A stretch of 64,000 bases of DNA from Candidatus Magasanikiibacteriota bacterium. GTDB lineage: Bacteria; Patescibacteriota; Patescibacteriia; Magasanikbacterales; GWA2-37-8. The stretch covers positions 335,860 through 399,859 of the forward strand of contig DAIOHD010000001.1 of assembly GCA_036744835.1 (NCBI GenBank), given 5' to 3'. Positions 17,296-56,320 of the stretch are shown piece by piece (within the stretch, counting starts at the first letter, position 1; the number at the start of each line of letters is the position of its first letter). The position numbers and the translations under genes were made by a program. Below the pieces are notes generated by a model, which was not told where the DNA came from, made no database searches, and saw only the letters and a program-made list of their open reading frames with translations.

Positions 17296-17379
17296 GTCAC
17301 GCTGAGCGTGACTATAACCCCGGACTTATCTTCGCGGGCCACGCTAAGCGTGGCTTTACCGGCGCTCAGCGCCGGGGTT
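17296..17379. repeat. GC-rich nested-hairpin intergenic element (E1)
   Basis: gtcacgc-tga-gcgtgac, then an outer stem aaccccgg...ccggggtt enclosing ggccacgc-taa-gcgtggc and cggcgc-tca-gcgccg. Abuts the -35 box. Confidence 0.6.
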
Positions 17380-17406
17380 GACAAAAGTGCTAAAATGTGC
17401 TATAAT
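17378..17406 (+). promoter_or_regulatory. Sigma-70-type promoter (TTGACA-17-TGcTATAAT)
   Basis: ttgaca 17378-83, 17-nt spacer aaagtgctaaaatgtgc, tataat 17401-06 with extended-10 TG. Confidence 0.7.
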
Positions 17407-17444
17407 ATCCTGTTGGATACCTTTAACTTTATAAGGAGGAAGCC

Positions 17445-17624
17445 ATGGAAAGGTTGTCGGTTTATATTGCTATTGTCATTTTCAACATCGTTGTAGGAGG
17501 AGTACAGTATCTTTGTTTTGAGGCAGATGTAAAGCGTATCGTTGTTATAGCGCTAATAAGTCTTGTCTCTGGTATTGGAGCGACGGCTTTTTACTACAAA
17601 ACAACGACGGGCAAAGTGATGTAG
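17445..17624 (+). CDS. 59-aa two-TM hydrophobic peptide (unlisted small ORF) with perfect SD
   Basis: AGGAGG at 17434-39, 5 nt before ATG 17445. Translated codon by codon: MERLSVYIAIVIFNIVVGGVQYLCFEADVKRIVVIALISLVSGIGATAFYYKTTTGKVM*. Driven by the consensus promoter above. Confidence 0.55.
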   Translation: MERLSVYIAIVIFNIVVGGVQYLCFEADVKRIVVIALISLVSGIGATAFYYKTTTGKVM

Positions 17625-17876
17625 AAAAAGACAAGGTAAGGTTCACAGCAGTTTTGAACTACTGCTTAAACAAAAGGTTCTTTTTTTATCCAAAAACAAA
17701 AATTCGTTCTCTCAGACGAATATTTTAAAATTACAAATTCAAAATTTCAAATTCCAAATAAATTACAATAAGCAATTTCAAAATTCAAAACGTTTTATGA
17801 GTTTGGATCTGTAATTTGAGATTTATTTGGAGCTTATAATTTTGAGTTTGTGATTTATATTCTAAAATCTAAAATC

Positions 17877-19658
17877 TTAAATCTCACTTTTTTTAATATC
17901 CTCAATGGTTAGCTGTAGCTCTCTGTTTCCATTCCATTGATTCACGCTAATGCGGAACACCATATCTATTTTATCTCCGGGTTTTAGGACTTCTTTCCAA
18001 TTGAGCGGATGTTTGTTGATATCACCTAGTCCAAAGCCGATAGTTTTTTTAATAAGATGAGAATTGTGTTTGACCATCAGGCGAAGATGTTTGCCATCAT
18101 TGCCAACCGGCACGACGGATGAAACAGTTAAATTGCGTGCTAGATATTTTGGTTCTTCGTTGCCAACGCCAAAGGGTTCAAATTTTTGCAACAAATCATA
18201 AAGACTCCAATTTACTTCGTCCAAATCAACTTCCGCATCAATAGTGATTTGTGGAACGAGCTCTACATTTTTTAATTTAGCTTCCGCGTATTTAAAAAAT
18301 CTTTCCTTAAATTCAGCCAAAGCATTTTTATCTTTCAAAGTAAAACCGCAAGCTTGCGGGTGTCCGCCAAATTTTTCAAATAAATCAGCGTTATCTTTCA
18401 ACGCCTCTATCAGATTAAATTCGGGGATACTACGTCCGGAACCGACAATTTCTTCATCCGTGATACCCATTACTAAGGTCGGTTTATAAAATTGTTCACG
18501 CACTTTACCGGAAACTAATCCCAAAATACCAGTTGGCCAATTTTCTTTGGCGATGATTAACATATGTTTATCTTCTTGTTTTTCTTCTTTTACTTGTTTG
18601 AGAGCTTCGTTGACTATTTTTTCCGTGAGTTTTTGACGATCAATATTATTTTTGTTGAGTTGAGCGGCTAGAGTATCAGCATCTTCTTCATTCAAAGCGG
18701 ATAATAACGCAAATGCGCTATTGGCATGATCCATGCGTCCGGCGGCGTTGAGGCGGGGGACTATCTGATAAGAAATATTTTCCGAACTTAGTCCGGCTAC
18801 ATTTTTGAGTTTATCCTTATCATCCAAAAGTCCGGCGTATTTAAAAAGTTTTTTCAAACCGAAATTTTTTGTTTTGTTTAAGACGGTCAACCCATAGCGA
18901 GTGAGAGTGCGACTTTCGCCGATAAGCGGAACCATATCACCGATACTTGCAATGGCCACTAAATCTAACATCCATTTTTCATATGACTCGTGAGTTTGTC
19001 CGTCGGGTAAAAATTCATTGGTTTTTTTGTGCTCTTTGAGAAGTCCTTGTGCCAATTTAAAAGCCACAGCCGCACCACAAAGGCCTTTGTCAGGATAGGG
19101 TTCATTTGGCATCAGATGATGGATGATAGCATCAGCCGGAGGAATATTTTCTGGAACAACATGATGATCCGTGATTATTACTTGTATGTTATTTTTTTTG
19201 ACCAGTTCTATTTCTTTGAAATTACTAACTCCGCAATCACAAGTGATTATCAAATCTATTTTTTGTTCTTTGAAATATTCAACCGTATTTTCGTTTAGGC
19301 CATAACCGTCAATTTCACGATGGGGAATAAAAACAGTTATATTTTTACCACCAAGTTTTTTGAGAGTATTGATGAGAATTGTGGCTGCGCAAACTCCGTC
19401 AGCATCATAATCACCGTGCACAACAATATTTTTATTAGTGACGATATTTTTCAAAATTATTTTCACCGCTTTTTCCATTTGCGAAAATAAAAAAGGATCA
19501 TGGATATCCATTCCATAATCGGGATTAAGAAATTCATCTATTTTTTTTTGGTCGCGTAAATTTCTATTCCAAAGCAAATTATTGACGATGCTTGGAAGTT
19601 CGGGATGAGAAGAAATAAAATCTACTGGTGCCTGTGGTAAAACTATCCACTTTTTCAT
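17877..19658 (-). CDS. recJ: Single-stranded-DNA-specific exonuclease RecJ
   Basis: VHGDYDADGVCAATIL and ITDHHV (DHH motifs), DHHA1 domain. Start chosen at MKKWIVLPQAP (ATG 19658, preceded by GAGG) rather than the upstream in-frame start. Confidence 0.85.
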   Translation of the reverse strand: MKKWIVLPQAPVDFISSHPELPSIVNNLLWNRNLRDQKKIDEFLNPDYGMDIHDPFLFSQMEKAVKIILKNIVTNKNIVVHGDYDADGVCAATILINTLKKLGGKNITVFIPHREIDGYGLNENTVEYFKEQKIDLIITCDCGVSNFKEIELVKKNNIQVIITDHHVVPENIPPADAIIHHLMPNEPYPDKGLCGAAVAFKLAQGLLKEHKKTNEFLPDGQTHESYEKWMLDLVAIASIGDMVPLIGESRTLTRYGLTVLNKTKNFGLKKLFKYAGLLDDKDKLKNVAGLSSENISYQIVPRLNAAGRMDHANSAFALLSALNEEDADTLAAQLNKNNIDRQKLTEKIVNEALKQVKEEKQEDKHMLIIAKENWPTGILGLVSGKVREQFYKPTLVMGITDEEIVGSGRSIPEFNLIEALKDNADLFEKFGGHPQACGFTLKDKNALAEFKERFFKYAEAKLKNVELVPQITIDAEVDLDEVNWSLYDLLQKFEPFGVGNEEPKYLARNLTVSSVVPVGNDGKHLRLMVKHNSHLIKKTIGFGLGDINKHPLNWKEVLKPGDKIDMVFRISVNQWNGNRELQLTIEDIKKSEI

Positions 19659-19904
19659 AATTTTTAGCCTAACCTCTGTTTTTTTTAATAAAATATCGGT
19701 GCGATGGTAAAAAGTAGCATGGCCAAAATTCCCAAAATGGAAATCATTATCCAAATTGACTTGACGGTTTTGTGTTTCATATAAATTAAGTATAAAGTAT
19801 TTAGTATTAAGTATTTAGTATGTAAACGTTGTTTTAAATTTCGATTTGATAATTGAAATTTAATTAAAAATTGCAAAATTAAAAATTAAAAATTGCTGAA
19901 AAGA

Positions 19905-21713
19905 TTATCTTTTTAACACTTCCAGGTATGTTTCCGTCGGTATATCCACCTTACCGTGAGCGATCATACGTTTCTTACCTTTCTTTTGTTTCTGTAGAAG
20001 TTTCAATTTGCGAGTATAATCACCACCACTCATAGTTTCGATAACATCTTTACGTAAAGCGGACAATCTTTCCGAAGCGATAATTTTTCCTCCAACTGCA
20101 GCTTGTATTTTTACCTCAAAATGTTGTCTTGGTAGAGATTCTTTTAGAGATTCTACAATTTTCTTACCGACTTTGTAAGCATCTTCTTTCCATACAAGGG
20201 TGGATAAAGATTCCACCGGGTCTTCAGCTATCAAAATATCCAGTTTTAATATGTTTGTTTCTTCATAATCCGTAAATTCATAATTCATAGAAGCATAGCC
20301 CGAAGTTACAGTTTTGAGCTTATCATAAAAATCCGTAATAAGGGAAGCAAGGGGAATTTCATAATGAAGCATGGCTCTTTGATCTGAACCGGTACTCAAG
20401 TATTGAGTATTGATATATCTTCCTTTGCGTTCTGATATTAGCCCCATAACATTTCCTACATAATCTTTTGGAGTGATAATGTCCAATTTCATCCAAGGTT
20501 CAAAAACTGATTTTAAATGACTAGGATCGGGCATTTCTTGTGGACTGTGAATAGTCAATTCTGTTCCGTTATTTTTGGTAATTCTATAAGCCACACTTGG
20601 AACGGTAATGATGATTTCTATTTCGTATTCACGTTTCAATCTTTCTTGAAAAATATCTAAATGCAACATCCCCAAAAAACCACAACGAAAACCAAATCCC
20701 AGAGCCTGGGAGTGTTCCGGTTCAAAAAATAAAGCCGAATCGCTTAATTTTAATTTTTCTATAGCATCTCGTAGTGATTGATATTCGTCGCCTTCTTTTG
20801 GAAAAATTCCGGCAAAAACCATGGGCTTGACTTCTTTGTATCCTGGAAGTGGTAATAAACTTTTATTTTTCTCTATTGATTCACGTAAAGTAATGGTGTC
20901 TCCAACACGACAATCGCGAACTTCTTTTAAGCCGGTAACAATATAACCTATTTCACCATTGCCTATTTTTTCATTACTTACAAATTTAGGTATATAATAA
21001 CCGACGTCAAGTGTATCAGCCGGAGTTTGAGTACCCATTAAATAAATTTTATCACTTTTTTTTATTTCTCCGTCAACCATACGAACCGATGCTACAACGC
21101 CTTTGTATTCGTTGTAAGTAGAATCAAAAATCATTGCTCGAGGAGGTAAGTCAACGGTATTTTTTGGTGGTTTAATTTGTTGAATAATTTTTTGCAATAT
21201 TTCTTCAACGCCCACGCCGGTTTTTCCTGAAGCCAAAATAATATCGCTTTCTGCACAGCCTATTAAATGTATAATTTCCGCTTTGGTTTTTTCTACATTG
21301 GCTATTGGCATGTCTATCTTATTGATAACAGGAATAATGGTGAGATTTTGTTCTAATGCCAGATAAAGATTACCAATAGTTTGCGCTTGGACTCCTTGAG
21401 TAGCATCTACCAATAGTATGGCGCCCTCAACAGCGGCCAGAGAGCGAGAAACTTCATAAGTGAAATCCACGTGTCCGGGGGTATCTATGAGATTTAAAAT
21501 ATAATCTTGATTTTCAAAATGATATTTCATGCGAACTGGAGTGAGTTTAATAGTGATACCGCGTTCACGCTCCAAATCCATAGAATCAAGTAGTTGAGCC
21601 TTCATTTCTCTTTTTTGGACAGTATGGGTAAATTCCAAAAAACGATCAGCCAAGGTGCTTTTACCGTGATCGATATGGGCGATAATACAGAAATTCCGAA
21701 TATTTTTTTGCAT
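19905..21713 (-). CDS. lepA: Elongation factor 4 (LepA)
   Basis: MQKNIRNFCIIAHIDHGKSTLADRFLE...DTPGHVDF, and the LepA-specific C-terminal domain. Confidence 0.92.
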   Translation of the reverse strand: MQKNIRNFCIIAHIDHGKSTLADRFLEFTHTVQKREMKAQLLDSMDLERERGITIKLTPVRMKYHFENQDYILNLIDTPGHVDFTYEVSRSLAAVEGAILLVDATQGVQAQTIGNLYLALEQNLTIIPVINKIDMPIANVEKTKAEIIHLIGCAESDIILASGKTGVGVEEILQKIIQQIKPPKNTVDLPPRAMIFDSTYNEYKGVVASVRMVDGEIKKSDKIYLMGTQTPADTLDVGYYIPKFVSNEKIGNGEIGYIVTGLKEVRDCRVGDTITLRESIEKNKSLLPLPGYKEVKPMVFAGIFPKEGDEYQSLRDAIEKLKLSDSALFFEPEHSQALGFGFRCGFLGMLHLDIFQERLKREYEIEIIITVPSVAYRITKNNGTELTIHSPQEMPDPSHLKSVFEPWMKLDIITPKDYVGNVMGLISERKGRYINTQYLSTGSDQRAMLHYEIPLASLITDFYDKLKTVTSGYASMNYEFTDYEETNILKLDILIAEDPVESLSTLVWKEDAYKVGKKIVESLKESLPRQHFEVKIQAAVGGKIIASERLSALRKDVIETMSGGDYTRKLKLLQKQKKGKKRMIAHGKVDIPTETYLEVLKR

Positions 21714-21715
21714 AA

Positions 21716-23347
21716 CTATTCCTTTGGATTAATAATTTCTTCTCCTGGTAGATTGCGTATTTTAAGCCATTGTTTTTTCAAAGAGGCTGTTAGAGAAAAA
21801 ACTTCTGGTAGTTGAAAAATATAGCATAAAAAACCATAAGTTAGCAAGCAGAGAAAAGCACTAAGAATAAATTGGAGAAAAACTCCGTAAAATCTGGTTT
21901 GGTCAAAAATATTTTCAAATAAACCGGAAAAATGATTTAAAACCAAATAACTCAAAATCAGACCGGTTATTACTTTAAATAAAAAGATAAAAAGTTTTTT
22001 AAAATTACGATTTTTGAAGTTTAATTGTAATAAAAAGAAAAGTAAAATTACGTTTATAGTTGAGCCGATAACTGTGGCTAAAGCTAAACCGTAAACACCA
22101 AAAGGACGCATCAATAAAATAGCACTGGTTATAGTGATGATTTCGGCTGCCAAGGCGGTAAAAAAAGGAGTCTTGGTGTTGGAAAGTGAATAAAAAGTTC
22201 TGGCCAATAGAGGTATTAAACTTTGGGCTAAAAGACCAAAAGCAAAATAAGCCAAGGTTTTGGAAGTGACTAAAGTGTTTTGCCAACTAAAAGATCCGCT
22301 TCCCAAAATCAAGCGAACAATTTGTGTGTTTAATGCTATAAAAATTATTACTAAAGGAGAAACCAAAAAAATTATTTGTCTAAGCACGGCCATGTATTGT
22401 TGATAAAAACTTTCCAGGTCATTTTTGGCGGAAAGGTTAGAAAGAACTGGAAAAACAGCTAAAGCAAAAGGTATACCGATTAACCCAATAGGCACAGCCT
22501 GTAAATTACTGGCAAAAGTAAATGCTGACAAACTTCCTGAAGGTAGCCAAGAGGCTAAAATTGCGATAACTATTAGATCGAGTTGAACAATAGCTAAACC
22601 GGCAGTTCGGGGGATCATGAGTTTGCCAATAAGACGCATTTCTTTATCTTTGAGGTCAAATATTTTTTTGAAACGAAAACCAGCTTGATAAGCTCCATAA
22701 TACTGGATAATCATATGTAAAAAGGCGCCCAAAATCACACCCATCGCCAGAGCCAAATAACCAAAATATTTAGTTAAATATAGAGCTCCAAAAATAATTC
22801 CCAAATTATAAAAAAGAGGAGCAATAGAAAAAAGAAAAAAACGACGTAATGATTGTAATACTCCTCCAAAGACCATGGACAAGCCAAAAAGAAATGGAGA
22901 TATAAACATCAAACGCATCAAAGAAACAACCATTTCCTGGCCTTGAAAAGAAAAACCAGGAGCGATAAGCGGAGCTAAAAACGGTGCTAAAATTATTCCA
23001 AACAAGCCGAGAACTATCAACAAAACAGAAATGATATTTATGACGTTGTTGGTTAAATCCCAAGCTCTTTGTTCATTTTTTTCTTCTTGATAAAAAAGTT
23101 TGGTAAATATCGGGATAAAACCCGCGGAAAGGGCTCCAATAACCAAAAGATTATAAATTAGATCAGGTATCTTGAAAGCGGCATAATAAGCATCCAAAAT
23201 TTCACCAGCTCCAAATTGATGTGCTAAAACTCGATCACGCAGAAGACCTATAATACGTGAAAGTAAAGTAGCGCCGGAAATAACCAAAGCTGAACCGGCA
23301 ATGGTTTTAAATTCAGTATTTAAATTAAATATTTTTTTAGAAAACAT
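21716..23347 (-). CDS. murJ: Lipid II flippase MurJ (MviN)
   Basis: LLSRIIGLLRDRVLAHQFGAGEILDAYYAAFKIPDLIYNLL, 14 predicted TMs. ATG 23347 chosen; the tool's start at 23383 is a TTG. Confidence 0.85.
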   Translation of the reverse strand: MFSKKIFNLNTEFKTIAGSALVISGATLLSRIIGLLRDRVLAHQFGAGEILDAYYAAFKIPDLIYNLLVIGALSAGFIPIFTKLFYQEEKNEQRAWDLTNNVINIISVLLIVLGLFGIILAPFLAPLIAPGFSFQGQEMVVSLMRLMFISPFLFGLSMVFGGVLQSLRRFFLFSIAPLFYNLGIIFGALYLTKYFGYLALAMGVILGAFLHMIIQYYGAYQAGFRFKKIFDLKDKEMRLIGKLMIPRTAGLAIVQLDLIVIAILASWLPSGSLSAFTFASNLQAVPIGLIGIPFALAVFPVLSNLSAKNDLESFYQQYMAVLRQIIFLVSPLVIIFIALNTQIVRLILGSGSFSWQNTLVTSKTLAYFAFGLLAQSLIPLLARTFYSLSNTKTPFFTALAAEIITITSAILLMRPFGVYGLALATVIGSTINVILLFFLLQLNFKNRNFKKLFIFLFKVITGLILSYLVLNHFSGLFENIFDQTRFYGVFLQFILSAFLCLLTYGFLCYIFQLPEVFSLTASLKKQWLKIRNLPGEEIINPKE

Positions 23348-23369
23348 GATTAAGATTGTATTTTGAAAA

Positions 23370-24044: not shown

Positions 24045-24130
24045 AAAAAGTAGATAATTGTTATCAACATTTTATCAGGTTTTTTGCTTTTTGTATAGAG
24101 TAAAGTATGATACAATAAGTTCATAAAGCT

Positions 24131-24193
24131 CACCCCGTTAAATCCGGCAAAGCCGGAATTTCGCAAAAAGCGAAATTATTTAACAGGGGTAAA
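24131..24193. repeat. GC-rich nested-hairpin intergenic element (E2)
   Basis: CACCCCGTTAAAT [ccgg-caaag-ccgg] [aatttcgc-aaaaa-gcgaaatt] ATTTAACAGGGGTAAA. Same architecture and outer-stem sequence as E3 at 50557. Confidence 0.6.
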
Positions 24194-24275
24194 TAAAGTT
24201 CGTAAGGTCCGTAAAGTCCACAAAAATGGTTGATAATTGAAAATTATAAATTCATTAAAAATTAAAATTTGACTT

Positions 24276-25649: not shown

Positions 25650-25723
25650 TTTGACTTCGGTTTAAGGTCTTCAGTCTTTAGTCTAATGTAGTCCGTAGTC
25701 TGTAGTCTGAAGTCCGATTGAGG

Positions 25724-35706: not shown

Positions 35707-36165
35707 ATGACCAAGTACAAGCAGTGGGATCTGTTGACCGATGACGAGAAGTACAATCTGTGTAATCTCGGCCCCGACGGCAAGAAACAGTTCTACGAGG
35801 TCATCATGGGCCAGTACGGGCAGCCGCTCATCGTGGCCGAACCCGACAGGGCCTTCCCGTGTCCGGCGACGCTCGAGTATGTCAACGCCAAGGGCGAAAC
35901 GGCCGTTCCGACCGAGAAGATCGCCGGAATAATCTGTTCCGACGGTAAGCGTTTCTCGCTGACCAACGCCGCCAACAAAGGGATCAAGATCGAGACCAAG
36001 GAAAACGGTTCCATCCAGATCGACGACGAGATCTGGTGGATCAAGACCTTGTTCCAGAAAGACAAGAACCGCATCATCAACTACGATGCGTACCTTTCGC
36101 CGGACAAGCCGGAGAAGGTCAAAATCCTTGAACTGGCCGACCTCACGGCTCATCTCTGTTCCTAA
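35707..36165 (+). CDS. High-GC 152-aa hypothetical protein (compositional island inside the rhamnose locus)
   Basis: GGAAGAGG SD 7 nt upstream. The ORF is visibly ~50-55% GC against ~30% background; all six frames are open across it. Own promoter and strong terminator. No recognisable domain. Confidence 0.6.
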   Translation: MTKYKQWDLLTDDEKYNLCNLGPDGKKQFYEVIMGQYGQPLIVAEPDRAFPCPATLEYVNAKGETAVPTEKIAGIICSDGKRFSLTNAANKGIKIETKENGSIQIDDEIWWIKTLFQKDKNRIINYDAYLSPDKPEKVKILELADLTAHLCS

Positions 36166-48365: not shown

Positions 48366-48416
48366 TCTTTTGATTAGTTCCTTGAAAATAAACAACCTTT
48401 CTATTTGGAGGATATC

Positions 48417-49784
48417 ATGAAAGTAAATTTAGTAGGAGTTTCTTCTGTTGCTCCGTTGGGTATGACAGAGTTCGCTGGTAAAACTTGTTATCAAAACGAA
48501 ATGCCAGAGTTCATCAGTGATGAAGAAGAGGCGAAAAAATTTGTTAAAGAAAAACTGTTTTTGCCTTCTCATCACACAACATCAGAACACACCAATTTCA
48601 CATTCTTTTTGGAAGGTATTCCCGTGAGTGATGTGACACTGGGTCTTCATTTGGCTCATCCGTTTTATAATTCGGATCAGCGTTCAGGGAGGTATTGTTC
48701 CAAAATGTTCACTTCTCCTGATTTTGGAGCTATTCGCGCTCACATTATTTCTTTGTGGCCAGAACTTACCCCATTTCAGACTGAAAATGTCATCGGATTT
48801 ATCAAAACCGGGACAGAAATTTATTCAATTTATATGGAGAAAGCAGTTGAGGTTACTGCAAAGCTTCTTCGCAAAGAGAGACCTCATTTGAGTGAAAAAG
48901 GTGTTGCAGAAAGAGCGCCCAAAATTGCTCAGGAACAGCTCCGAATGTTCATTTCCACGATTTTTCCAACTGGCCTGGTTCATACTATTGACATCATCAC
49001 TTTGGTTTCTATGTGGGAATCGGCTTGGTCGCCTGGTATGAGAAAAATGACCGATATGATGAGAGATCATGTGTTGGAAAGATTTCCCCAAACATCCTTC
49101 ATGTTTGATGAAGATCGTCGTTGCAAAGACGATTGGGCTTGTGCTTTGGTAGAAATACCTCCAGATAATATGATTGCTTTTTCTCCCAAAGTTACTAATG
49201 TGAGATTAGACATCTCTCATTTGGCGAAATTGCCCGATGAAAAAATAATGCATCCGGTTGATAAGCTCCATTTTACTCCGGAGTTTATGGATAACAACAC
49301 CAATGATGTTTTGTCGCGAGTTCAGATTTCCTTGGCTACCATGGGTCAGGATCAGCGTCACAGAACCGTCAAAAGGAGTGAGCCCGCTTTTACCGGGGAA
49401 TTTTATCTTCCACCGATTTGTCAGATACTGGGACTTCATGAGATAGCCAGGAATTTTTTTAAGACATGGCTGGAAATGAGGGATTCTATTCCGGCAAGTC
49501 TGCTTGCTGCTATCGCTCCGTATGGTGCAGTAGTTACATACGAGAAAAAAGCAAATTTGAATGCTTTTTTTCATGAGATTGCCAAGCGTTTTTGTTGGCA
49601 GGCGCAGGAGGAGATTTATAACCTCAACATTTTACTAAAAAGAATTATTGAACTTCAATATCAGGATTCTGATATTCTCAGCAAGATGATCCCGCCTTGT
49701 TTTCACAGTGGCAAGTGCGCTGAAGGCGGTCGCTATTGCGGTCGCAACATGGAAAATCGCGAAAGCGATTTCCGAAAGGTTTGA
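48417..49784 (+). CDS. Divergent ThyX (flavin-dependent thymidylate synthase) family protein, elongated, with RHR motif replaced
   Basis: HTTSEHTNFTFFLEGIPVSDVTLGLHLAHPFYNSDQRSGRYCSKM aligns by eye to Thermotoga ThyX [42 protein letters not shown]. The catalytic RHR is AHP here, the protein is 455 aa (ThyX ~220-260), and a second RHR-containing stretch QDQRHRTVKRS is in the C-terminal half. GGAGGA SD. Confidence 0.55.
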   Translation: MKVNLVGVSSVAPLGMTEFAGKTCYQNEMPEFISDEEEAKKFVKEKLFLPSHHTTSEHTNFTFFLEGIPVSDVTLGLHLAHPFYNSDQRSGRYCSKMFTSPDFGAIRAHIISLWPELTPFQTENVIGFIKTGTEIYSIYMEKAVEVTAKLLRKERPHLSEKGVAERAPKIAQEQLRMFISTIFPTGLVHTIDIITLVSMWESAWSPGMRKMTDMMRDHVLERFPQTSFMFDEDRRCKDDWACALVEIPPDNMIAFSPKVTNVRLDISHLAKLPDEKIMHPVDKLHFTPEFMDNNTNDVLSRVQISLATMGQDQRHRTVKRSEPAFTGEFYLPPICQILGLHEIARNFFKTWLEMRDSIPASLLAAIAPYGAVVTYEKKANLNAFFHEIAKRFCWQAQEEIYNLNILLKRIIELQYQDSDILSKMIPPCFHSGKCAEGGRYCGRNMENRESDFRKV

Positions 49785-49798
49785 TATTAAAATTATAA

Positions 49799-49824
49799 GC
49801 GGAGCTCACCCTCCGCTTTTTTTA
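49799..49824 (+). terminator. Intrinsic terminator
   Basis: gcggag-ctcaccct-ctccgc-ttttttt. Confidence 0.75.
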
Positions 49825-49919
49825 ATTTTTTCAATTTCATATCCTTGACTTTCTCTTCAAAATATGTTATGTTCTAACTAGTTTTTTACAATTTATAAAC
49901 GATTTTTTGGAGGTGGGTT

Positions 49920-50501
49920 ATGTTGTCAAAAAAAATTGAAAGGGCAATCTGTCTAGCTGCTAGATTGCACAAAAACCAGCTTCGCAAAGATGGGGAAACA
50001 CCTTATGTTTCTCATTGTTTTGCGGTCGCTTGCGTTTTGAGTCAATACACCAATGAGCAGGAAATAATCATTGCCGGATTACTCCATGATGTATTGGAAG
50101 ATGTTCCTGGATATCTTTATGAAGATATCATACGCGATTTTGGTGAGCGTGTTGCAATCATTGTTCAGGGGGTTAGTGAAGATAAAAACCCTAACGAAGA
50201 AACGGATAAAAAGGCGACATGGGGTGAAAGAAAAGCCAAACAGTTGTCTTCCTTGCGCAATGCTAGTGTCGATGTCCTTCTTGTTTGTTGTGCAGATAAA
50301 ATTCACAACCTCAGATCAACAACCAATGAGTTCGAAGAGACTGGGAAAAAAATTTGGGAAAAGTTCAATGCACCGATCGAGAGACAGCTCTGGTACTATC
50401 AAGAAATTCTTTCTATTATGAAAAACAGGATATCTCTAAATCCGATAGTTCGAGAGCTGGAAATGGCACTGCAGTACTTTACCTGTATTGTTCGTGCCTA
50501 A
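49920..50501 (+). CDS. Rel/SpoT-type HD-domain hydrolase (small alarmone hydrolase-like)
   Basis: GETPYVSHCFAVACVLSQYTNEQEIIIAGLLHDVLEDV matches the (p)ppGpp hydrolase HD domain (GEPYITHPLAVA...LLHDVIED). 193 aa, no synthetase domain. Confidence 0.75.
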   Translation: MLSKKIERAICLAARLHKNQLRKDGETPYVSHCFAVACVLSQYTNEQEIIIAGLLHDVLEDVPGYLYEDIIRDFGERVAIIVQGVSEDKNPNEETDKKATWGERKAKQLSSLRNASVDVLLVCCADKIHNLRSTTNEFEETGKKIWEKFNAPIERQLWYYQEILSIMKNRISLNPIVRELEMALQYFTCIVRA

Positions 50502-50527
50502 AACTCCAGAATCGTTTATTTTTTACT

Positions 50528-50552
50528 ACCGCCCATATCCGGGCGGTTTTCT
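50528..50552 (+). terminator. Intrinsic terminator
   Basis: ccgccc-atatcc-gggcgg-tttt. Confidence 0.6.
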
Positions 50553-50556
50553 TATT

Positions 50557-50670
50557 CACCCCGTGAAATAATTTTTGTTTTAACAAAAATTGGCGCAAAG
50601 CGCCATTTCACAGGGGTAAACCCCGTGAAATTTCGTAATTTCGCTTTAATTTCGTACGTTCGTACGTAAC
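50557..50670. repeat. GC-rich nested-hairpin intergenic element (E3) with an extra 3' copy of the outer-stem 5' arm
   Basis: CACCCCGTGAAAT [aatttttgtt-ttaac-aaaaatt] [ggcg-caaag-cgcc] ATTTCACAGGGGTAAA CCCCGTGAAAT ttcgtaatttcg...cgtacgttcgtacgtaac. Confidence 0.6.
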
Positions 50671-50676
50671 TAATCT

Positions 50677-50705
50677 TTGCAATCTTTTTAAATTTGTGTT
50701 ATAAT
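50677..50705 (+). promoter_or_regulatory. Promoter TTGCAA-17-TGtTATAAT for the metK leader
   Basis: Read directly. Confidence 0.6.
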
Positions 50706-50736
50706 ATTTTCAGACAATTTAATAATTAGTTTTATC

Positions 50737-50845
50737 CAGAGTGCAGTTTGTTTTTTCGCCTTGGCGAAGAATCTAGGGATCTAGCCCGAACACTGCCGAC
50801 AACCGTTGAAAGATGACTCTTTCAAAAAGGTGCCAATTCTAGCCT
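50737..50845 (+). promoter_or_regulatory. Candidate SAM-binding riboswitch aptamer (S-box-like, non-canonical order) in the metK leader
   Basis: Contains AGGGAUC...GCCCGAA...GCCGACAACC, GUUGAAAGAUGAC and GGUGCCAAUUC. These strongly resemble SAM-I/SAM-IV core segments (GGCAACC, GGUGCYAAUUCC), and the element is upstream of metK. The segment order differs from the T. tengcongensis SAM-I I remember, so the class is uncertain. Confidence 0.5.
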
Positions 50846-50870
50846 TAAACTCCGCTTAGCGGGGCGTAGG

Positions 50871-50940
50871 GGAAAGATATCAAGTCGATTTTTTATTTCT
50901 TAAATAAAAAAATATCTTTCCTCAAAAGGGAAAGTTTTTT
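50871..50940 (+). terminator. Riboswitch expression platform: antiterminator (ggaaagatat...atatctttcc) competing with an intrinsic terminator (ctttcc-tcaaaa-ggaaag-tttttt)
   Basis: 10-bp antiterminator stem 50871-80/50912-21. The terminator stem 50916-21/50929-34 reuses ctttcc and is followed by T6 at 50935-40. Confidence 0.6.
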
Positions 50941-50946
50941 ATTGAC

Positions 50947-51037
50947 TGTCATTGCGAGGAATGTAATGACGAAGCAATCCCACAAAGTTCAGAAAGCAGT
51001 GAGATTGCCACGTCGTCTGCGACTCCTCGCAATGACA
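50947..51037. repeat. 91-bp stem-loop: perfect 14-bp inverted repeat tgtcattgcgagga / tcctcgcaatgaca around a 63-nt partly self-complementary spacer
   Basis: Read directly; lies between the leader terminator and the metK ATG. Confidence 0.7.
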
Positions 51038-51082
51038 CCTTACTAATCTTTAAATCTTTAAATTTTTAAATCTTTAAATCTT

Positions 51083-52201
51083 ATGTTCAAAACTTGTGAA
51101 TCAGTTTGTGCCGGACATCCGGACAAAATTTGTGATCAAATTAGCGATGCAATACTTGACGCATGTTTGCGTGAAGACAGTGAAGCCAGAGTAGCCATAG
51201 AATGTCTCATCAAAGACAAACATCTTATCTTGGCCGGTGAGATAACTAGCTCTGCTAATCCCGATTTTATTGCTATTGCCAAAAACACTTTAGAAAAAAT
51301 CGGTTATACAAAAGAGGAAGTAGAAAAATTTCAAATTCAAAATCTTATCGGCAAACAATCTTCCCATATCGCGCAAGGAGTAGATACGGGCGGAGCCGGC
51401 GATCAAGGGATGATGTATGGTTATGCTACGGATGAAACTCCGGAGATGATGCCTCTGCCTAGTTTACTCTCGCATCGTTTATGTCAAAAACTCAACGCCT
51501 TGATGATAGAAGACGCTACTTGTCCGCTCAAACCAGACGGTAAAGCGCAAGTAACTATACTATATGAAAATGATAAACCACTCATGGCCGATACGGTCAT
51601 AGTTTCTGTTCAGCACACACCGGAAATCACTTCTCCTGATTTGGAAAAATATGTTTGGGAAAAAGTCATCCAACCTATTTGTGCTCCTTGGCTCAAAATA
51701 GGTCCTATCATCAATCCGCATTTCAAAGATAAACAAAATACAGAATTTACCAAAATCTTCATCAACCCAACCGGACGTTTTGAAATCGGCGGACCTGAAG
51801 GTGATTGCGGTTTGACCGGTCGTAAAATCGCTGTAGATACTTATGGTGGAATTGGTCGTATCGGCGGGGGAGCATTCTCAGGCAAAGATCCGAGCAAAGT
51901 AGACCGTAGCGCCGCTTATATGGCCCGTTATCTGGCAAAAAAGCTAGTTTCTCTAGGTTTTGCTGGCGAGGTAGAAGTTCGTCTAGCTTATGCTATCGGG
52001 GTAGCGCAACCGGTTGATGTCAGTGTAGATATTATCCGTGGTGACAAAACTCGCCAAAGCGAAGCGGTAAAATATTTACGAGAAAACTTTGATCTCACTC
52101 CATCAGGAATCATAGAATTTTTGCAATTGAAACAACCAATTTATTCCGCAACTTCCGCTTACGGACATTTTGGGAGAAACGGATTTAGTTGGGAAAAATA
52201 A
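51083..52201 (+). CDS. metK: S-adenosylmethionine synthetase
   Basis: CESVCAGHPDKICDQISDAILDACL...GGGAFSGKDPSKVDRSAAY canonical MetK motifs. Confidence 0.92.
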   Translation: MFKTCESVCAGHPDKICDQISDAILDACLREDSEARVAIECLIKDKHLILAGEITSSANPDFIAIAKNTLEKIGYTKEEVEKFQIQNLIGKQSSHIAQGVDTGGAGDQGMMYGYATDETPEMMPLPSLLSHRLCQKLNALMIEDATCPLKPDGKAQVTILYENDKPLMADTVIVSVQHTPEITSPDLEKYVWEKVIQPICAPWLKIGPIINPHFKDKQNTEFTKIFINPTGRFEIGGPEGDCGLTGRKIAVDTYGGIGRIGGGAFSGKDPSKVDRSAAYMARYLAKKLVSLGFAGEVEVRLAYAIGVAQPVDVSVDIIRGDKTRQSEAVKYLRENFDLTPSGIIEFLQLKQPIYSATSAYGHFGRNGFSWEK

Positions 52202-52338
52202 CACACCCAGGTGTGTGAGTTGAAAGTAAAAATTTAAAAAATTGAAGAAATTTAAAAAATTCAAAAGATTAGATAAAATACAAGAATACAATTTCCTACT
52301 AAAGGTGGACGAAGGCGGGTTGAAAGAGATTAAATAAT

Positions 52339-52368
52339 TAAAAACTGTCCCAAAAGGGCAGTTTTTAA
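52339..52368. terminator. Bidirectional intrinsic terminator
   Basis: aaaaactgtccc-aaaa-gggcagttttt. Confidence 0.7.
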
Positions 52369-52403
52369 TATATCATTTAGCTAATATTAGCCAAATCTAC
52401 CTC

Positions 52404-52432
52404 TTGACAAAATCGTTAAAATGTGCTACAAT
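52404..52432 (+). promoter_or_regulatory. Promoter TTGACA-17-TGcTACAAT
   Basis: ttgacaaaatcgttaaaatgtgctacaat. Confidence 0.65.
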
Positions 52433-52477
52433 ACTCTGTTTAGTAGTTCTTTATATACAAACAAAAAGGAGGATGCC

Positions 52478-52606
52478 ATGTTTATTTTCTTTGGAATTAT
52501 TGCTTTTTTACTGGTAATAGCATTGGGATATTATTTTCTTAAAATAGTATTCACAATAATGTTCATCTGTTTTTTGGTGGACATGATAATGGATATTTTA
52601 TTTTAG
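52478..52606 (+). CDS. 42-aa two-TM hydrophobic peptide with perfect SD
   Basis: AAGGAGG 5 nt upstream of ATG 52478; MFIFFGIIAFLLVIALGYYFLKIVFTIMFICFLVDMIMDILF*; followed by a terminator. Confidence 0.5.
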   Translation: MFIFFGIIAFLLVIALGYYFLKIVFTIMFICFLVDMIMDILF

Positions 52607-52621
52607 TAAAACCTTTTTATA

Positions 52622-52648
52622 AGCGGAGCTTCGGCTCCGTTTTTTTGT
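52622..52648 (+). terminator. Intrinsic terminator
   Basis: gcggagc-ttcg-gctccgt-tttttttg. Confidence 0.8.
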
Positions 52649-52705
52649 TGAATTTTTTACAGAAAAAGGGTAAAATAAAGACGATAAATAAATAATTATT
52701 GTTTT

Positions 52706-53629
52706 ATGCCAGAAATTAGTTTACAAGATGCGGGATTTTGCCCCCACGGAAATTATCCCAATCAATGCGATGCTTGTCGTTTTGAATATTTGCATGAAGT
52801 CAAAGAACAAGCACAAAACAATTGCGAAAAAACTATAGAAGAATTTGGTTTAAAAAACAGCCCAACTTTTGCACAGGCGTATGAAAAAATGAAAAATATG
52901 AACCATGGACCTTATCATCAGGAAGGTGGTCCAGATGTTCACGTGTCTTTGGTGTTATGGGAGATGGATAAACTGATAGGGCAAGAAGAAAAAAATTTGA
53001 CTGATGAAGAAAAAAAGATATTACGTCTGAGCGCCTTACTGCATGATATTGGTAAACCAGAGAGCTCGTTTGTTGACCTGCCGACCAAAAAACACATGGA
53101 ATTATTTGAGAGTTCCAAAACAATGTTAAGTCCCGGAGCTTTGGACAAAGCGCAAAAAATAAGAACTGAAATATTAGACAGTATGATGCCGGGAAAAAGA
53201 TCAAAGCCCAAAGAAATGGATTTGGTTCGCACACCTGAGTTTCAAAACAAGGTAGAAGAGATGTTGCAAAATGAAGATGCAGAAGTAAAACGTGCGTTTG
53301 TGCCTAGATTTTTTGATCATGAAACTTTTAGCGCCAATTTATTGGATAAAATCACACAGGAAATAGATTTGAAATTAACACCTGGCCAGATAGAAACTTT
53401 GAAAAAAATTATCGGCAACCACATGGCTTTGTATGCCGATACAACTGGGTTGGAAAAATTTATTGCCAAAGCACTTACCAAAGATGGTCAGTTTGATGAA
53501 AATACTTGGAAAATGCTCAAGATGCAAGTTCGTTCCGATTCCCGTGGGACGTACTCTTATGGCGAACCCAATCGCGATGCAGGGGTAGATAAATTGATAG
53601 AGGGGATTGAAAAAACAAAGATAAAATAA
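52706..53629 (+). CDS. HD-domain phosphohydrolase family protein
   Basis: HGPYHQEGGPDVHVSLVL...LSALLHDIGKP (H...HD metal-binding motif); N-terminal Cys pair (CPHGNYPNQCDAC). Confidence 0.6.
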   Translation: MPEISLQDAGFCPHGNYPNQCDACRFEYLHEVKEQAQNNCEKTIEEFGLKNSPTFAQAYEKMKNMNHGPYHQEGGPDVHVSLVLWEMDKLIGQEEKNLTDEEKKILRLSALLHDIGKPESSFVDLPTKKHMELFESSKTMLSPGALDKAQKIRTEILDSMMPGKRSKPKEMDLVRTPEFQNKVEEMLQNEDAEVKRAFVPRFFDHETFSANLLDKITQEIDLKLTPGQIETLKKIIGNHMALYADTTGLEKFIAKALTKDGQFDENTWKMLKMQVRSDSRGTYSYGEPNRDAGVDKLIEGIEKTKIK

Positions 53630-53650
53630 ATTAATTTAAATAATAATATT

Positions 53651-54136
53651 ATGAAGAATAAAAAACTAATCACAATCACGATTTTGGCCGTCTTGGTTTT
53701 TCTGGGAGCTGGTTGTAAATATGGAAATGAAACCAAACCCGACATCGATCAATCTCCGGGAAATATTGTCGGCGCAGACAGAGACGCACATGGTTGTATC
53801 GGTTCAGCCGGATATTCTTGGTGTGAAGAAAAACAAAAATGTTTGCGTCCTTGGGAAGAAAAATGTGAGGGCGATGCCGGAAATACAGTTTGTGGAATAG
53901 AAAATTGCCATGGATTGGATATTCAATGCGGACCCAATCCAGCGGAAATGTGCACAGAAATTTATCAAATTGGAGATAAGTGTAGAAAATACGCAAAATG
54001 TGGCGTTCAAAACGGTACTTGTCAGCAAATACAAAATGCGCAATTTACGCAATGCAAAGAATGTGTTCAAAATTGTGAAAACAAAAACAATGATGATGTT
54101 ATGAAAATGTTTGAATGCGAGGGAAATTGTAATTAA
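53651..54136 (+). CDS. Cysteine-rich secreted lipoprotein
   Basis: Signal peptide plus lipobox (VLVFLGAGC); >20 Cys in the mature 140 aa; no recognisable domain. Confidence 0.6.
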   Translation: MKNKKLITITILAVLVFLGAGCKYGNETKPDIDQSPGNIVGADRDAHGCIGSAGYSWCEEKQKCLRPWEEKCEGDAGNTVCGIENCHGLDIQCGPNPAEMCTEIYQIGDKCRKYAKCGVQNGTCQQIQNAQFTQCKECVQNCENKNNDDVMKMFECEGNCN

Positions 54137-54254
54137 CATAAAATAAATATTGAATATCCCCTCCTTTTCAAGGAGGGGGGGAGGGGTGGTTAATATCCAA
54201 TATTCTATCTAATCTTTAAATCTTTCAATCTTGTAATCTTGCAATCAAAAAATT

Positions 54255-54503
54255 ATGTCTTTTTTCGTCTATATTGTAAAGTGTTCTGACAAAACTCTTT
54301 ACACCGGCATCACCACTGACTTGAAACGTCGTATTGATGAACATAATTCTTCGGATTTGGGCGCCAAATACACCCGCGCCCGCCGTCCGGTCAAACTCGT
54401 CTGGTCAAAAAAGTTCAAAACCAGATCTTCCGCCGCACGGATGGAGTATAAAATCAAACAGTTGAGTAGAGAGGAAAAAATCGTTTTGATAAAATCTAAA
54501 TAA
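54255..54503 (+). CDS. GIY-YIG nuclease-family protein (UPF0213/YhbQ-like)
   Basis: FFVYIVKCSDKTLYTGITTDLKRRIDEHN...RRP.KLVW GIY-YIG core; 82 aa. Confidence 0.8.
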   Translation: MSFFVYIVKCSDKTLYTGITTDLKRRIDEHNSSDLGAKYTRARRPVKLVWSKKFKTRSSAARMEYKIKQLSREEKIVLIKSK

Positions 54504-54505
54504 CT

Positions 54506-54596
54506 AAACACTTCGCCCTCTAGTTGAAGTGTTTTTATTTGCTTTGTTTTAGCAAAAATTATAGTTCTTGAAGTTTTGGGTGAAAGGGAGTAAAAT
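54506..54596 (+). promoter_or_regulatory. Repeated module copy A: terminator hairpin (aaacacttc...gaagtgttt) + palindromic ttgctttgttttagcaaaa + promoter TTGAAG-17-TAAAAT
   Basis: ~85% identical to copy B at 57272-57362; promoter part also matches 56384-56412. Confidence 0.65.
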
Positions 54597-54626
54597 ATAG
54601 AACATTATAAACAAAAAATAGTTAAC

Positions 54627-55316
54627 ATGTATATTTTTCTCGATGAAAGCGGACAATTTCATAAAAATCATAAAGACGATTATTTTGTGATTGGTTCTTT
54701 TACGATAGGTGACACAAAAAGAACGGCTAAACGTTTTAGATCTTGGTGTCGTACCAGATTTCCTAAAAAAATGTGTAAACAAGCGGAAATTAAATATTCT
54801 GATTCCGGTATATCCGATGAGCTTCGATTGAGAACCTTAAAATTCATTAGTTCTTTGGATGTAAGAGTGCGTTATAGTTTTATGAAAAAAGAAAATATTC
54901 CTGATGAATATAAAACTAAAGATACTTTAGAAAGTGGATTGCTCTATACTGCTATAGTCGGTGAGACCCTTGAATTATATTTACCAACTGATGATAATTT
55001 ATTACATGTTTTTTGTGATCAGCGTAGACTGAAAGGTGTTAGTAAAAAAGAATTTACGGAAAAAATTATACCTCATCTTTTGCCAAATTTATCAAAAGGC
55101 GGACAAATTAAAATTGAAATGGTTGATTCTAAAGAATACCCAAACATTCAAATCGCCGATTGGATTGTAGGTGGAATTGCCTCTTATTTAAATAAAAAAA
55201 ATTTGGGCGATGAAGTATTTACTATATTGAAAAATAATATTATTAGTGAAGGTAAAGAAATGTTTAAAGATTATTGGGATAATAAATATAACAAAAAACC
55301 CAATCTTATAGATTAG
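54627..55316 (+). CDS. DUF3800-family protein
   Basis: MYIFLDESGQF... N-terminal signature of DUF3800, 229 aa. Confidence 0.65.
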   Translation: MYIFLDESGQFHKNHKDDYFVIGSFTIGDTKRTAKRFRSWCRTRFPKKMCKQAEIKYSDSGISDELRLRTLKFISSLDVRVRYSFMKKENIPDEYKTKDTLESGLLYTAIVGETLELYLPTDDNLLHVFCDQRRLKGVSKKEFTEKIIPHLLPNLSKGGQIKIEMVDSKEYPNIQIADWIVGGIASYLNKKNLGDEVFTILKNNIISEGKEMFKDYWDNKYNKKPNLID

Positions 55317-55327
55317 GCATTTTGTTG

Positions 55328-55403
55328 AAGCAGCGTCTCCCAACGCGGAATTCCACAGCTGAAGCCTCAGGTTCCCTGAGGGAGCACCGTGGCGCACTGA
55401 AAG
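55328..55403. other. GC-rich structured segment between convergent genes
   Basis: gcgtctcccaacgcggaattccacagctgaagcctcaggttccctgagggagcaccgtggcgcac, containing cctcag-gttcc-ctgagg hairpin. Not a complete tRNA. Confidence 0.4.
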
Positions 55404-55523
55404 CTATTATTGCATACTTCAATATTAATATACCACAAAATCAGTCTTTAGTCAATATTTATCCACAACACAAATTCCGCCAAATAAGCGGAATTTTTTG
55501 TATGTTTACGATTTTGTTTTTAT

Positions 55524-56174
55524 TTAGAAGTTATTGGTGTATTCCAATAGTAAACCCATCATAACTTTTTTTACTGCTGGATGAGAATTGTACATTATTT
55601 CTTTTTTTATCTCTTTATTACGAAAAAAAGATATGATTTCTTTTTCAATCTCCAATTTATGCCAAGAAGGCATTTTGCTGAGTGTTTCTGATAAGTCTTC
55701 AGTTATAGATAATATAGCAGGGATATTTTCACTACTTCCCAAAGCAGAAAAAAGATCATAACCACCGCGTAAAGTTTTTGGCGCAAAATGGCTAGGCACG
55801 AAAGTTCCATATTTATTAAAACCCAACAAATATCCTTTTTCTTTATTTCCAAAACAAAGAGAGGCTTCGATATTTCCATCTTGAAAAAAATGACCGATGA
55901 AAGATTCTTTGGAAAGTGGTTCTCGGTCACGTCTTTGCATCGCTTCAGAATACCATGTATAAACTTCGTCAGCAGAAACATCGTCCAATATTTTATCTGT
56001 ATTAATTAATTCAAAATCATGACCGTTAAATCTCTCTTTAATAAGTAAATCTTCAGTCACTTCCAGTGTTTTATCCATCTCCTCTATTTTTTTATTATAT
56101 TCTTCCACGCCCATTTCTATTTCTTCTTTAATTTGTTTTGGGTCGGGTTTATTCCAATTATTTTCATTGTACAT
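55524..56174 (-). CDS. Hypothetical cytoplasmic protein
   Basis: 216 aa, no motif recognised; acidic N-terminus. Confidence 0.45.
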   Translation of the reverse strand: MYNENNWNKPDPKQIKEEIEMGVEEYNKKIEEMDKTLEVTEDLLIKERFNGHDFELINTDKILDDVSADEVYTWYSEAMQRRDREPLSKESFIGHFFQDGNIEASLCFGNKEKGYLLGFNKYGTFVPSHFAPKTLRGGYDLFSALGSSENIPAILSITEDLSETLSKMPSWHKLEIEKEIISFFRNKEIKKEIMYNSHPAVKKVMMGLLLEYTNNF

Positions 56175-56273
56175 ATATTTTTTTTAATTTTACTTTTTTC
56201 TAGAATATTATAAATACGAACAAAAGTCAATTTAAGTTAGATTATTGTAAAAGCTAAAATAAGCCGGTTTTGT

Positions 56274-56320
56274 CACCCCCGCGAATCCGCCTTCGCCAGT
56301 TGGCGAATGGCGGGAGGGGA
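56274..56320. repeat. GC-rich nested-hairpin element (E4)
   Basis: CACCCCCGCGAAT ccgcc [ttcgcc-agtt-ggcgaa] t ggcgg GAGGGGA. Confidence 0.55.

Follow-up and report, generated by a model that had tools for sequence, protein, structure and literature searches.

Short palindromic elements with a three-way-junction fold in a Patescibacteria genome, and a small GIY-YIG nuclease cassette with the same arms

Two short palindromic elements, E2 and E3, are the subject of this report. They lie in intergenic DNA of a 64,000-nt stretch of a Candidatus Magasanikiibacteriota genome (contig DAIOHD010000001.1), the whole of which was analysed and is here called the window. Its sequence is AT-rich, about 34% G+C, with sigma-70-like promoters, and a first-pass annotation had picked out four GC-rich structured spots in it, E1 to E4, as one family with a common outer stem starting CACCCCG. 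Palindromic sequence is present at all four. The grouping, however, is confirmed only in part: E2 and E3 are two true members of one family, and E1 and E4 are unrelated hairpin repeats. E2 is between divergent genes, upstream of promoter-like sites for both, and E3 follows a canonical terminator (50528-50547) and precedes the metK promoter. Directly after E3 comes a solo third copy of the 5′ arm, which had been missed earlier.

Anatomy and spread of the E2/E3 family

24129-24193, + strand: E2, a complete three-way-junction palindromic element (CTC flank; 5′ arm 24132-24143, ACCCCGTTAAAT; hairpin 1, 24144-24156, CCGGC-AAA-GCCGG; hairpin 2, 24157-24177, AATTTCGC-AAAAA-GCGAAATT; 3′ arm 24178-24190, ATTTAAC-A-GGGGT; AAA flank)
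50555-50620, + strand: E3, a complete three-way-junction palindromic element (TTC flank; 5′ arm 50558-50569, ACCCCGTGAAAT; hairpin 1, 50570-50591, AATTTTTGT..ACAAAAATT; hairpin 2, 50592-50604, GGCGC-AAA-GCGCC; 3′ arm 50605-50617, ATTTCAC-A-GGGGT; AAA flank)
50620-50631, + strand: solo copy of the 5′ arm, ACCCCGTGAAAT

The outer stem of both elements is of 12 bp (ACCCCGTnAAAT / ATTTnAC-A-GGGGT), with a left arm of 12 nt, ACCCCGT[T/G]AAAT, and a right arm of 13 nt, ATTT[A/C]AC-A-GGGGT, in which one A is bulged. The common arms described in the first-pass annotation (CACCCCGT[T/G]AAAT ... ATTT[A/C]ACAGGGGTAAA) are thus borne out, with one compensatory change: the variable base is in a T-A pair in E2 and in a G-C pair in E3. 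Inside are two back-to-back hairpins and zero unpaired junction bases, which makes the three-way junction perfect. Folded as single-stranded DNA (ssDNA), either strand of either element adopts the same Y-shape at about −21.5 kcal/mol, with z scores from −6.8 to −8.4 (E2, −21.5 kcal/mol on both strands and z about −8; E3, −21.3 kcal/mol and z −7.3). As RNA, the z scores against shuffles are −4.4 to −6.6 for E1, E2 and E3, and −4.7 to −6.6 for E2 and E3 alone; E4 folds more weakly (z −1.4 for the + strand and −2.7 for the − strand). The solo arm can pair with the 3′ arm of E3 to give an alternative hairpin in both RNA and ssDNA folds. Among the loci from other genomes with which the window was compared (labelled L005, L035, L044 and so on), it is also found in L026 and is absent in L063, L067 and L069. 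The solo arm is probably what is left of a second element or cassette next to E3.

That the family has two members in the window, not four, was revealed by a covariance model, R1, built from 11 family members. Applied with its filters disabled to both strands of the entire window, it scored E2 at 51.4 bits and E3 at 53.3 bits; the next match, at 14.9 bits, is within an ORF (open reading frame), and at E1 and E4 there was no match even at E≤10. The CACCCCG outer stem at these latter two is coincidental, this word being found four times in the window where about two are expected.

Further copies are plentiful elsewhere. A pattern scan of species-representative genomes with ACCCCGTNAAAT-N(20-50)-ATTTNACAGGGGT, in which the arms are fixed by design, gave 66 further exact-arm matches at 64 loci in about 42 assemblies or species. 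The hosts are mostly Patescibacteria (Nomura-, Parcu- and Paceibacterota, Saccharibacteria, Moran- and Berkelbacteria). Others are metagenome-assembled genomes (MAGs) labelled Elusimicrobia, Prolixibacteraceae/Bacteroidales (Bacteroidota) and Desulfatiglandales (Desulfobacterota). [MAGs labelled ‘uncultured Gammaproteobacteria’ are 70–87% identical to the window over kilobases and are therefore taken as close relatives of its source; such labels need caution.] Exact copies number one to seven per genome, with four in a complete Saccharibacteria chromosome of 626 kb, and several are located at contig ends. The same scan of viral contigs gave 0 matches, so this is not a phage element.

The inner hairpins of different copies are unrelated in sequence, and it is their pairing that is kept. 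Exactly two hairpins are present in 52 of 60 unique copies, and 40 of the 60 have perfect two-hairpin interiors with zero junction bases, compared to 0.075 in shuffles (maximum 2). The free position n of the outer stem is in a Watson-Crick pair in 58 of the 60 copies and in a G·T pair in the other two. In a structure-registered alignment almost all inner-stem positions show each of the four Watson-Crick pair types; as the alignment was built from predicted pairing, its 100% paired state is by construction, but the diversity of pair types is not. Compensatory changes are abundant in the family. Divergent copies found by R1 have outer stems altered in a compensatory manner, or have C, T or nothing in place of the bulged A. 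The two inner hairpins come in either order, and the interior of E3 is approximately the reverse complement of that in L043 and L048, with arm orientation unchanged. Copies at orthologous positions between hisS and rpsU in two lineages have one hairpin kept and the other remodelled, and Nomurabacteria paralogues display compensatory changes in steps. One genome can have the same short copy at more than one locus, and 11 of the 64 loci have another copy no more than 8 kb away, typically at an operon boundary.

At orthologous sites the elements stay the same while their surroundings do not. E2 is identical at 59 of 59 positions in the ortholog L044, where the flanks are 75% identical. A 60-mer of E3 is identical in the window, L026, L063, L067/L068 and L069, with adjacent ThyX 72–88% identical; the AT-rich DNA just downstream is fully turned over, and the loop of the upstream terminator varies. 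Since 53 of these 60 bases are paired, the conservation fits structural constraint and does not imply that every base is read.

Two genes near E3 have features of their own. The ThyX-like protein (48405-49784) is of 459 aa, about twice the usual length, and its Thy1 domain match is restricted to residues 20–228. Immediately 5′ of E3 is an HD_4-domain gene (49825-50543) with its own promoter-like site and terminator. It is absent there in L026, L063, L067/L068 and L069, and so represents a gene-sized indel abutting E3; a tblastn search of all loci with this gene gave no matches, and hence no evidence that it is cargo of the element.

A GIY-YIG nuclease cassette with the same arms

The arms of E2 and E3 are conserved because they are common to a nuclease cassette. 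When solo arms were searched for, locus L035 was found to have the two arms about 260 nt apart, enclosing an 84-aa ORF with a Pfam GIY-YIG nuclease domain (PF01541, E=4.8e-15). The C-terminus of this ORF, ...SYFTG-stop, is coded by the right arm itself (tAT TTC ACG GGG TGA). The protein has at least 2,585 homologues at E≤1e-5. The best 120 of these are 73–86% identical and are from Patescibacteria, Elusimicrobia, Bacteroidales, Flavobacteriales, Chloroflexi and Cloacimonetes, and C-terminal SY[F/L]TG is present in 28 of 28 homologues inspected.

Eight distinct cassettes were examined: the DNA around six homologues, L035, and the tandem second gene copy in L072. All eight have the 5′ arm 20–25 nt upstream of the ATG. 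The layout, of about 300 bp, is the 5′ arm TTyACCCyGTnAAAT, some 20–25 nt, the ATG of the single-domain 84-aa GIY-YIG ORF, and a 3′ arm formed by the last four codons (Y-F/L-T-G) and stop of the ORF, tAT TTn ACn GGG TAA/TGA. The arms covary across cassettes. The third base of the Thr codon (ACG, ACT or ACA) pairs with C, A or T in the left arm, except in two cassettes that have a mismatch there. Opposite the Phe codon TTC the arm has G, and opposite Leu TTA it has T; Leu TTG gives T·G. Where distant or paralogous cassettes are compared, homology begins at the left arm and ends at the right arm. Short gene-less elements adjoin cassettes, 45 nt upstream in L035 and 69 nt downstream in L105, and in each of these two genomes both forms are present. 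The first 21 nt of E3 match the end of the L035 cassette at 20 of 21 positions, and the rAA flank of the short elements is the cassette stop codon.

Two further loci contain small GIY-YIG genes within other repeats, a perfect 19-bp inverted repeat in L032 and a palindrome of the GTCATTGCGAG type in L012. The window has a gene-less copy of the latter and, elsewhere, a stand-alone GIY-YIG gene of a different type.

50947-51037, + strand: gene-less nested palindrome with perfect 14-bp arms, TGTCATTGCGAGGA / TCCTCGCAATGACA, of the repeat type that brackets a GIY-YIG ORF in L012
54255-54503, + strand: stand-alone GIY-YIG gene, 82 aa, of UPF0213/YhbQ type (Pfam PF01541, E=1e-19), the only one in the window

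The palindrome is in the metK leader, between the terminator of a riboswitch and the start codon. Relatives differ at this spot: L063 and L069 have a GC-rich hairpin of another kind, and L067 has an additional one inserted. The riboswitch itself (SAM-I, for S-adenosylmethionine; 50729-50883, + strand), upstream of metK (51083-52201), is a sub-threshold match, 21.2 bits as against 44.4 bits; the core is almost unchanged across four relatives and one stem shows compensatory change, which makes a genuine, if divergent, SAM riboswitch probable. The 82-aa GIY-YIG protein is 33% identical to the L035-type protein and has relatives in the PDB, 1zg2 and 1ywl, annotated as UPF0213. No convincing inverted repeat brackets its gene. 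Just upstream of it is a hairpin (54146-54204; CCCCTCCTT-TTC-AAGGAGGGG followed by GGGAGGGGTGG), a 92% identical copy of which in L014 points to another shared repeat family.

Folded DNA and the rival explanations

The family behaves as would be expected of a DNA palindrome. Between co-directional genes 19 copies are on the same strand as the genes and 20 on the opposite strand. Overall, 39 copies are in co-directional, 9 in divergent and 8 in convergent settings, and divergent regions are not avoided; with respect to local GC skew orientation is without bias (28 to 25). The 107 neighbouring genes compared with Pfam represent 84 and 80 families on the two sides, none of them occurring more than three times, and there is no transposase or regulon among these neighbours. 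Inner stems have 655 Watson-Crick pairs and 8 G·T pairs (1.2% of 663), a scarcity that is expected if both strands must pair. In Rfam, E1 to E4 gave nothing at gathering threshold, and the E2 and E3 regions gave nothing credible at E≤10. E2 and E3 are also outside obvious transcription units, and so a DNA-level role is the most economical reading in this window.

If the element were instead a structured RNA – a cis-regulatory leader, a processing or stabilising site, or a small RNA, with the three-way junction bound by a protein via its bulged stem – it would be clear why position n and the two inner hairpins covary so strongly. The loops, many of which resemble UUCG or GNRA or are GAA, are A-rich on the strand with the bulged A, and one cassette has a U·G pair. 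Many copies in other genomes are 8–60 nt from a start codon, and several overlap the stop codon of the upstream ORF (TAA in GTTAAAT) and are therefore transcribed there. However, equal orientations, 9 of 56 copies in divergent regions, incoherent neighbours and a G·T level far under that of typical RNAs are not what such an RNA would lead one to expect. The junction has no unpaired conserved nucleotides to form a ligand or catalytic pocket, E2 and E3 are outside the predicted transcription units, and their arms are accounted for by the nuclease cassette. An RNA is accordingly considered quite unlikely. Of the first-pass suggestion that these are either structure-selected RNA or REP/MITE-like (repetitive extragenic palindromic, or miniature inverted-repeat transposable, elements), the latter half is upheld for E2 and E3. 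The former is weakened, because orientation is random, flanking genes are incoherent, G·T is nearly absent and Rfam has no match.

The literature searched contained nothing specific on the motif or on palindromic repeats of Patescibacteria. Among known systems the nearest is that of the Ssn proteins, single-domain GIY-YIG nucleases (cd10448), whose genes are flanked by NTS/SRM hairpin repeats that are also dispersed in intergenic DNA (Chenal et al. 2025, Nat Commun, PMC11893778). Neisseria Ssn binds the hairpin only as ssDNA and in one orientation, cuts a few bases upstream, and thereby limits natural transformation; NTS-ssnA-NTS has been likened to an insertion sequence and to REP/RAYT, RAYT being REP-associated tyrosine transposase (PMC11893778). 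The likeness lies in an inverted-repeat motif on either side of a small gene for a single-domain GIY-YIG protein (all eight cassettes here), and in a conserved hairpin-forming motif that is also scattered gene-less in intergenic DNA across phyla. Moreover, canonical NTS/SRM copies adjoin three-way-junction elements in close relatives of the window, and E4 is an interrupted one. The published SRM pattern, HGTCWYN(0-2)YYVSBRHN(0-5)WNVSBRGN(0-2)RNCYNB, has nine matches in the related loci L005, L006, L015, L031, L032 and L039. In contrast, the dispersed unit is a three-way junction here and a single hairpin of 20–50 nt there, and genomes have one to seven exact copies here as against hundreds. 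E2 and E3 may therefore work like an SRM-type repeat even though they fail its sequence definition and differ in architecture.

The interpretation favoured, with confidence somewhat above even, is that E2 and E3 are gene-less members, of about 65 bp, of a DNA element family whose full form is the cassette of about 300 bp, and that they act as folded DNA. In the short form two small hairpins would replace the ORF; the arms could then pair directly, and each DNA strand could fold as a perfect three-way junction. The folded stem would be exposed when the DNA is single-stranded during uptake of transforming DNA or replication, or on cruciform extrusion. By analogy with Ssn/NTS the cognate GIY-YIG nuclease would recognise this stem and nick close to it, and nicking could lead to the spread and clustering of copies in a MITE-like or REP-like manner. 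The short copies look like versions, lacking the gene, of a small selfish or domesticated DNA element. If the same analogy extends to the host, recognition and cutting of E2 and E3 may contribute to DNA uptake or recombination, restricting or steering the recombination of incoming DNA.

Several points weigh against this interpretation. The L035-type nuclease gene is absent from the 64-kb window, and 62 of 64 short-copy loci have no cassette within 8 kb. The 84-aa protein has no match in NCBIfam or among PDB sequences, and it is assigned to Pfam PF01541, being at most a putative member of cd10448, the Ssn clade. The SRM pattern has 0 matches on either strand of the window, and E2 and E3 are unrelated in sequence to its consensus. 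Each side of the gene here has a half-site, the 3′ one coding, whereas the published arrangement has a whole hairpin on each side. Arm conservation among exact-arm copies is partly a product of the search. The pairing of arms across the cassette could instead serve the mRNA of the nuclease itself, with the U·G pair mentioned above (in L097) fitting RNA, and the loop sequences could likewise hint at RNA. Finally, no pair of empty and filled sites was found for the cassette.

The last of these bears especially on a bolder proposal, held more tentatively and on balance doubtful, that the unit of arm, 84-aa GIY-YIG ORF and arm, of about 300 bp, is an autonomous interphylum mobile element which spawns three-way-junction miniatures of about 65 bp such as E2 and E3. 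Mobility is suggested by the distribution of cassettes and by their homology boundaries. The nuclease would recognise the folded arms in ssDNA, nick beside them and promote copying to new intergenic sites, often near existing copies. Direct repeats of at least 7 nt are present in the flanks of 17 of 63 copies; they are of no fixed length and belong to 8-nt tandem arrays. The longest shared flank word averages 5.9 nt as against 4.7 in mismatched controls, and as copies sit in such arrays the signal for target-site duplication is ambiguous.

At the other extreme the short elements could be inert leftovers, decayed cassettes that have lost ORF, activity and function. Their arms and adjacent bases are the same as those of cassettes, a solo arm lies beside E3, and copies are few, with just the four exact ones in the complete 626-kb genome. 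However, their interiors are not ORF fragments but perfect hairpins kept via compensatory change, the elements are unchanged at orthologous sites where adjacent AT-rich DNA has turned over, and identical short copies are at several loci of one genome, with copies clustering. Simple decay is thus judged unlikely.

Classical REP elements moved by a RAYT, an IS200/IS605-like Y1 HUH transposase, would also be extragenic palindromes in both orientations clustered with other hairpin repeats, and the comparison extends to bulged stems and to probable recognition as folded ssDNA by a small nuclease whose gene has the same flanking repeats, as for REP elements and their composites (BIMEs, bacterial interspersed mosaic elements) and IS200/IS605 ends. 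One genome does have a RAYT-like gene flanked by hairpins (L066, 5217-5954; Pfam Y1_Tnp, 20.8 bits, under the cut-off), but its hairpin is a different one, CCAGCCACCAGTCGGACTGGTGGCTGG, and not the E2/E3 arms. [With an HUH-like motif, NHFH, and CCAGCCACCAGTCGGACTGGTGGCTGG on both sides, it is a separate pair of REP/RAYT type in a Paceibacterota genome.] A Y1 transposase is found neither in the window (tblastn with approximate sequences of IS608 TnpA and E. coli RAYT) nor beside any copy (Pfam neighbours). The enzyme here is GIY-YIG and the arms coincide with the ends of its cassette. There is no 5′ tetranucleotide of GTAG type, the flanks being TTy ... rAA, divergent promoter regions are not avoided, and the arms are conserved across phyla while REPs are species-specific. 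Movement by a RAYT is very improbable.

It is hardly credible that E2 and E3 serve as intrinsic terminators, whether ordinary or bidirectional, or that they are a duplex operator to which a transcription factor binds. The stems are intergenic and GC-rich, and the end of some copies coincides with a −35 box (GGGGT-TGACA). However, no T-run follows the stem in either element, E3 is just past a canonical terminator, and E2 is between divergent genes, so neither is merely a terminator. A terminator scan gave canonical ones at 17226-17254 and 50528-50547 and did not list the elements as wholes, the minus strand yielding only the E3 inner hairpin 50591-50605. For a dimeric operator the half-sites, 22–50 bp apart at variable spacing filled with hairpins, are unsuited. 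Operators of Rex/CRP type were ruled out by sequence and spacing. An integron attC site was also considered and rejected, since GTTAAAT and ATTTAAC are in the opposite order to that of attC, in which R″ (RYYYAAC) is 5′ and R′ (GTTRRRY) 3′ in a folded site with extrahelical bases, and half of the copies have GTGAAAT.

Two other comparisons are instructive. Like the Correia/NEMIS MITEs of Neisseria, the short elements are non-coding and intergenic, multi-copy, sometimes overlap gene ends or are fused to a −35 box, and have terminal inverted repeats common to a longer partner that carries a gene. The partner protein here, however, is not a known transposase, interiors are fully different where those of MITEs are near-identical, and the TTy/rAA flanks are part of the element, because rAA is the cassette stop codon. 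The T-shaped inverted terminal repeat of parvoviruses (adeno-associated virus) also has an outer palindrome enclosing two small ones in a perfect three-way junction, and the swapped order of inner hairpins in E3 compared to L043/L048 resembles its flip/flop. This likeness is one of shape only, as E2 and E3 are intergenic elements of the chromosome, do not form replication termini and have no Rep protein.

Other repeats of the window, and what the elements may mean

17296-17379, + strand: E1, three CGC-TnA-GCG mini-hairpins (17296-17312, 17339-17353 and 17359-17375) with an extra pair, AACCCCGG 17316-17323 / CCGGGGTT 17372-17379; not a family member
56271-56325, + strand: E4, an interrupted NTS/SRM-like hairpin (5′ half TGTCACCCCCGCGAA, 56271-56285; 3′ half GAGGGGATCCAG, 56314-56325) split by a different repeat hairpin, CCGCCTTCGCCAGTTGGCGAATGGCGG, 56287-56313; not a family member

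E1 abuts a consensus −35 box, TTGACA (17378-17383). Three of the four CGCTNAGCG palindromes of the window are within it, with 0.22 expected for the window as a whole, and E1 is therefore a separate mini-hairpin type. In L044 an E1-type hairpin is directly upstream of another TTGACA, at a position occupied in the window by an 8-nt tandem array. The outer halves of E4, TGTCACCCCCGCGAA ... GGGAGGGGATCCAG, match the published NTS/SRM hairpin, and the 5′ half is identical to that of an intact SRM copy in L005 (TGTCACCCCCGCGAAGGCGGGGGTCCAG). As it stands E4 does not match the published SRM pattern, both halves being present but split by 24–28 nt. Its inner hairpin is found again in L061, where a G-C pair has become A-T by compensatory change.

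Tandem arrays with a period of about 8 nt fill many intergenic regions (7829-7874, 24194-24224, 25660-25720, 50632-50670, 51035-51088 and 54209-54246). Their units are AATCTTTA, TTCGTAAG/GTCCGTAAA and GTAGTCYG, and they are often just before promoters or start codons and around hairpin elements. One such array is replaced in the L044 ortholog by two CGCTGAGCG hairpins, and Prolixibacteraceae loci have GGTTTCAG and TTACTGA arrays around an element of the E2/E3 family. A paper on intergenic TAACTGA direct repeats (PMC4679880) may be relevant to them.

In the window a promoter-like block of about 53 nt, TTGAAtTTTTtaGGGAAAAGgAGTAAAAT, is present in four copies (52638-52690, 54558-54610, 56374-56426 and 57324-57376) upstream of consecutive genes – an HD/Cas3-HD-like gene, a DUF3800 gene, an SNase gene and a 571-aa ORF – which suggests a co-regulated set. 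Just downstream of the DUF3800-domain gene (54627-55316, + strand), and on the opposite strand, is a full-length DUF3800-V RNA (Rfam RF02964; 55326-55421, − strand; 73.2 bits against a gathering threshold of 37.4), the only Rfam match of the window at threshold. Elsewhere an island at 35707-36165, with 61% G+C in a 34% G+C genome, has overlapping ORFs on both strands and no Pfam match; it may be foreign DNA.

To return to E2 and E3, the pairing of a mini GIY-YIG nuclease with a cognate hairpin, as in Ssn/NTS, would, if the favoured interpretation is right, gain a second motif, unrelated in sequence and of different architecture. The recognition structure would be well defined, a stem of 12 bp in which a single base is bulged, and this would be a candidate for a new pair of nuclease and site. 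It would also explain in concrete terms why these AT-rich genomes are dotted with GC-rich hairpins that break their assemblies, at least for some of those hairpins. Should the cassette also prove able to move on its own, it would rank among the smallest mobile elements known, a minimal one of a new kind, with a GIY-YIG nuclease in place of a transposase. Pairing of the Ssn/NTS type would, on the favoured interpretation, extend to the ultra-small Patescibacteria. These bacteria depend on DNA uptake, and so an ssDNA-specific nuclease and its sites could shape what they acquire.

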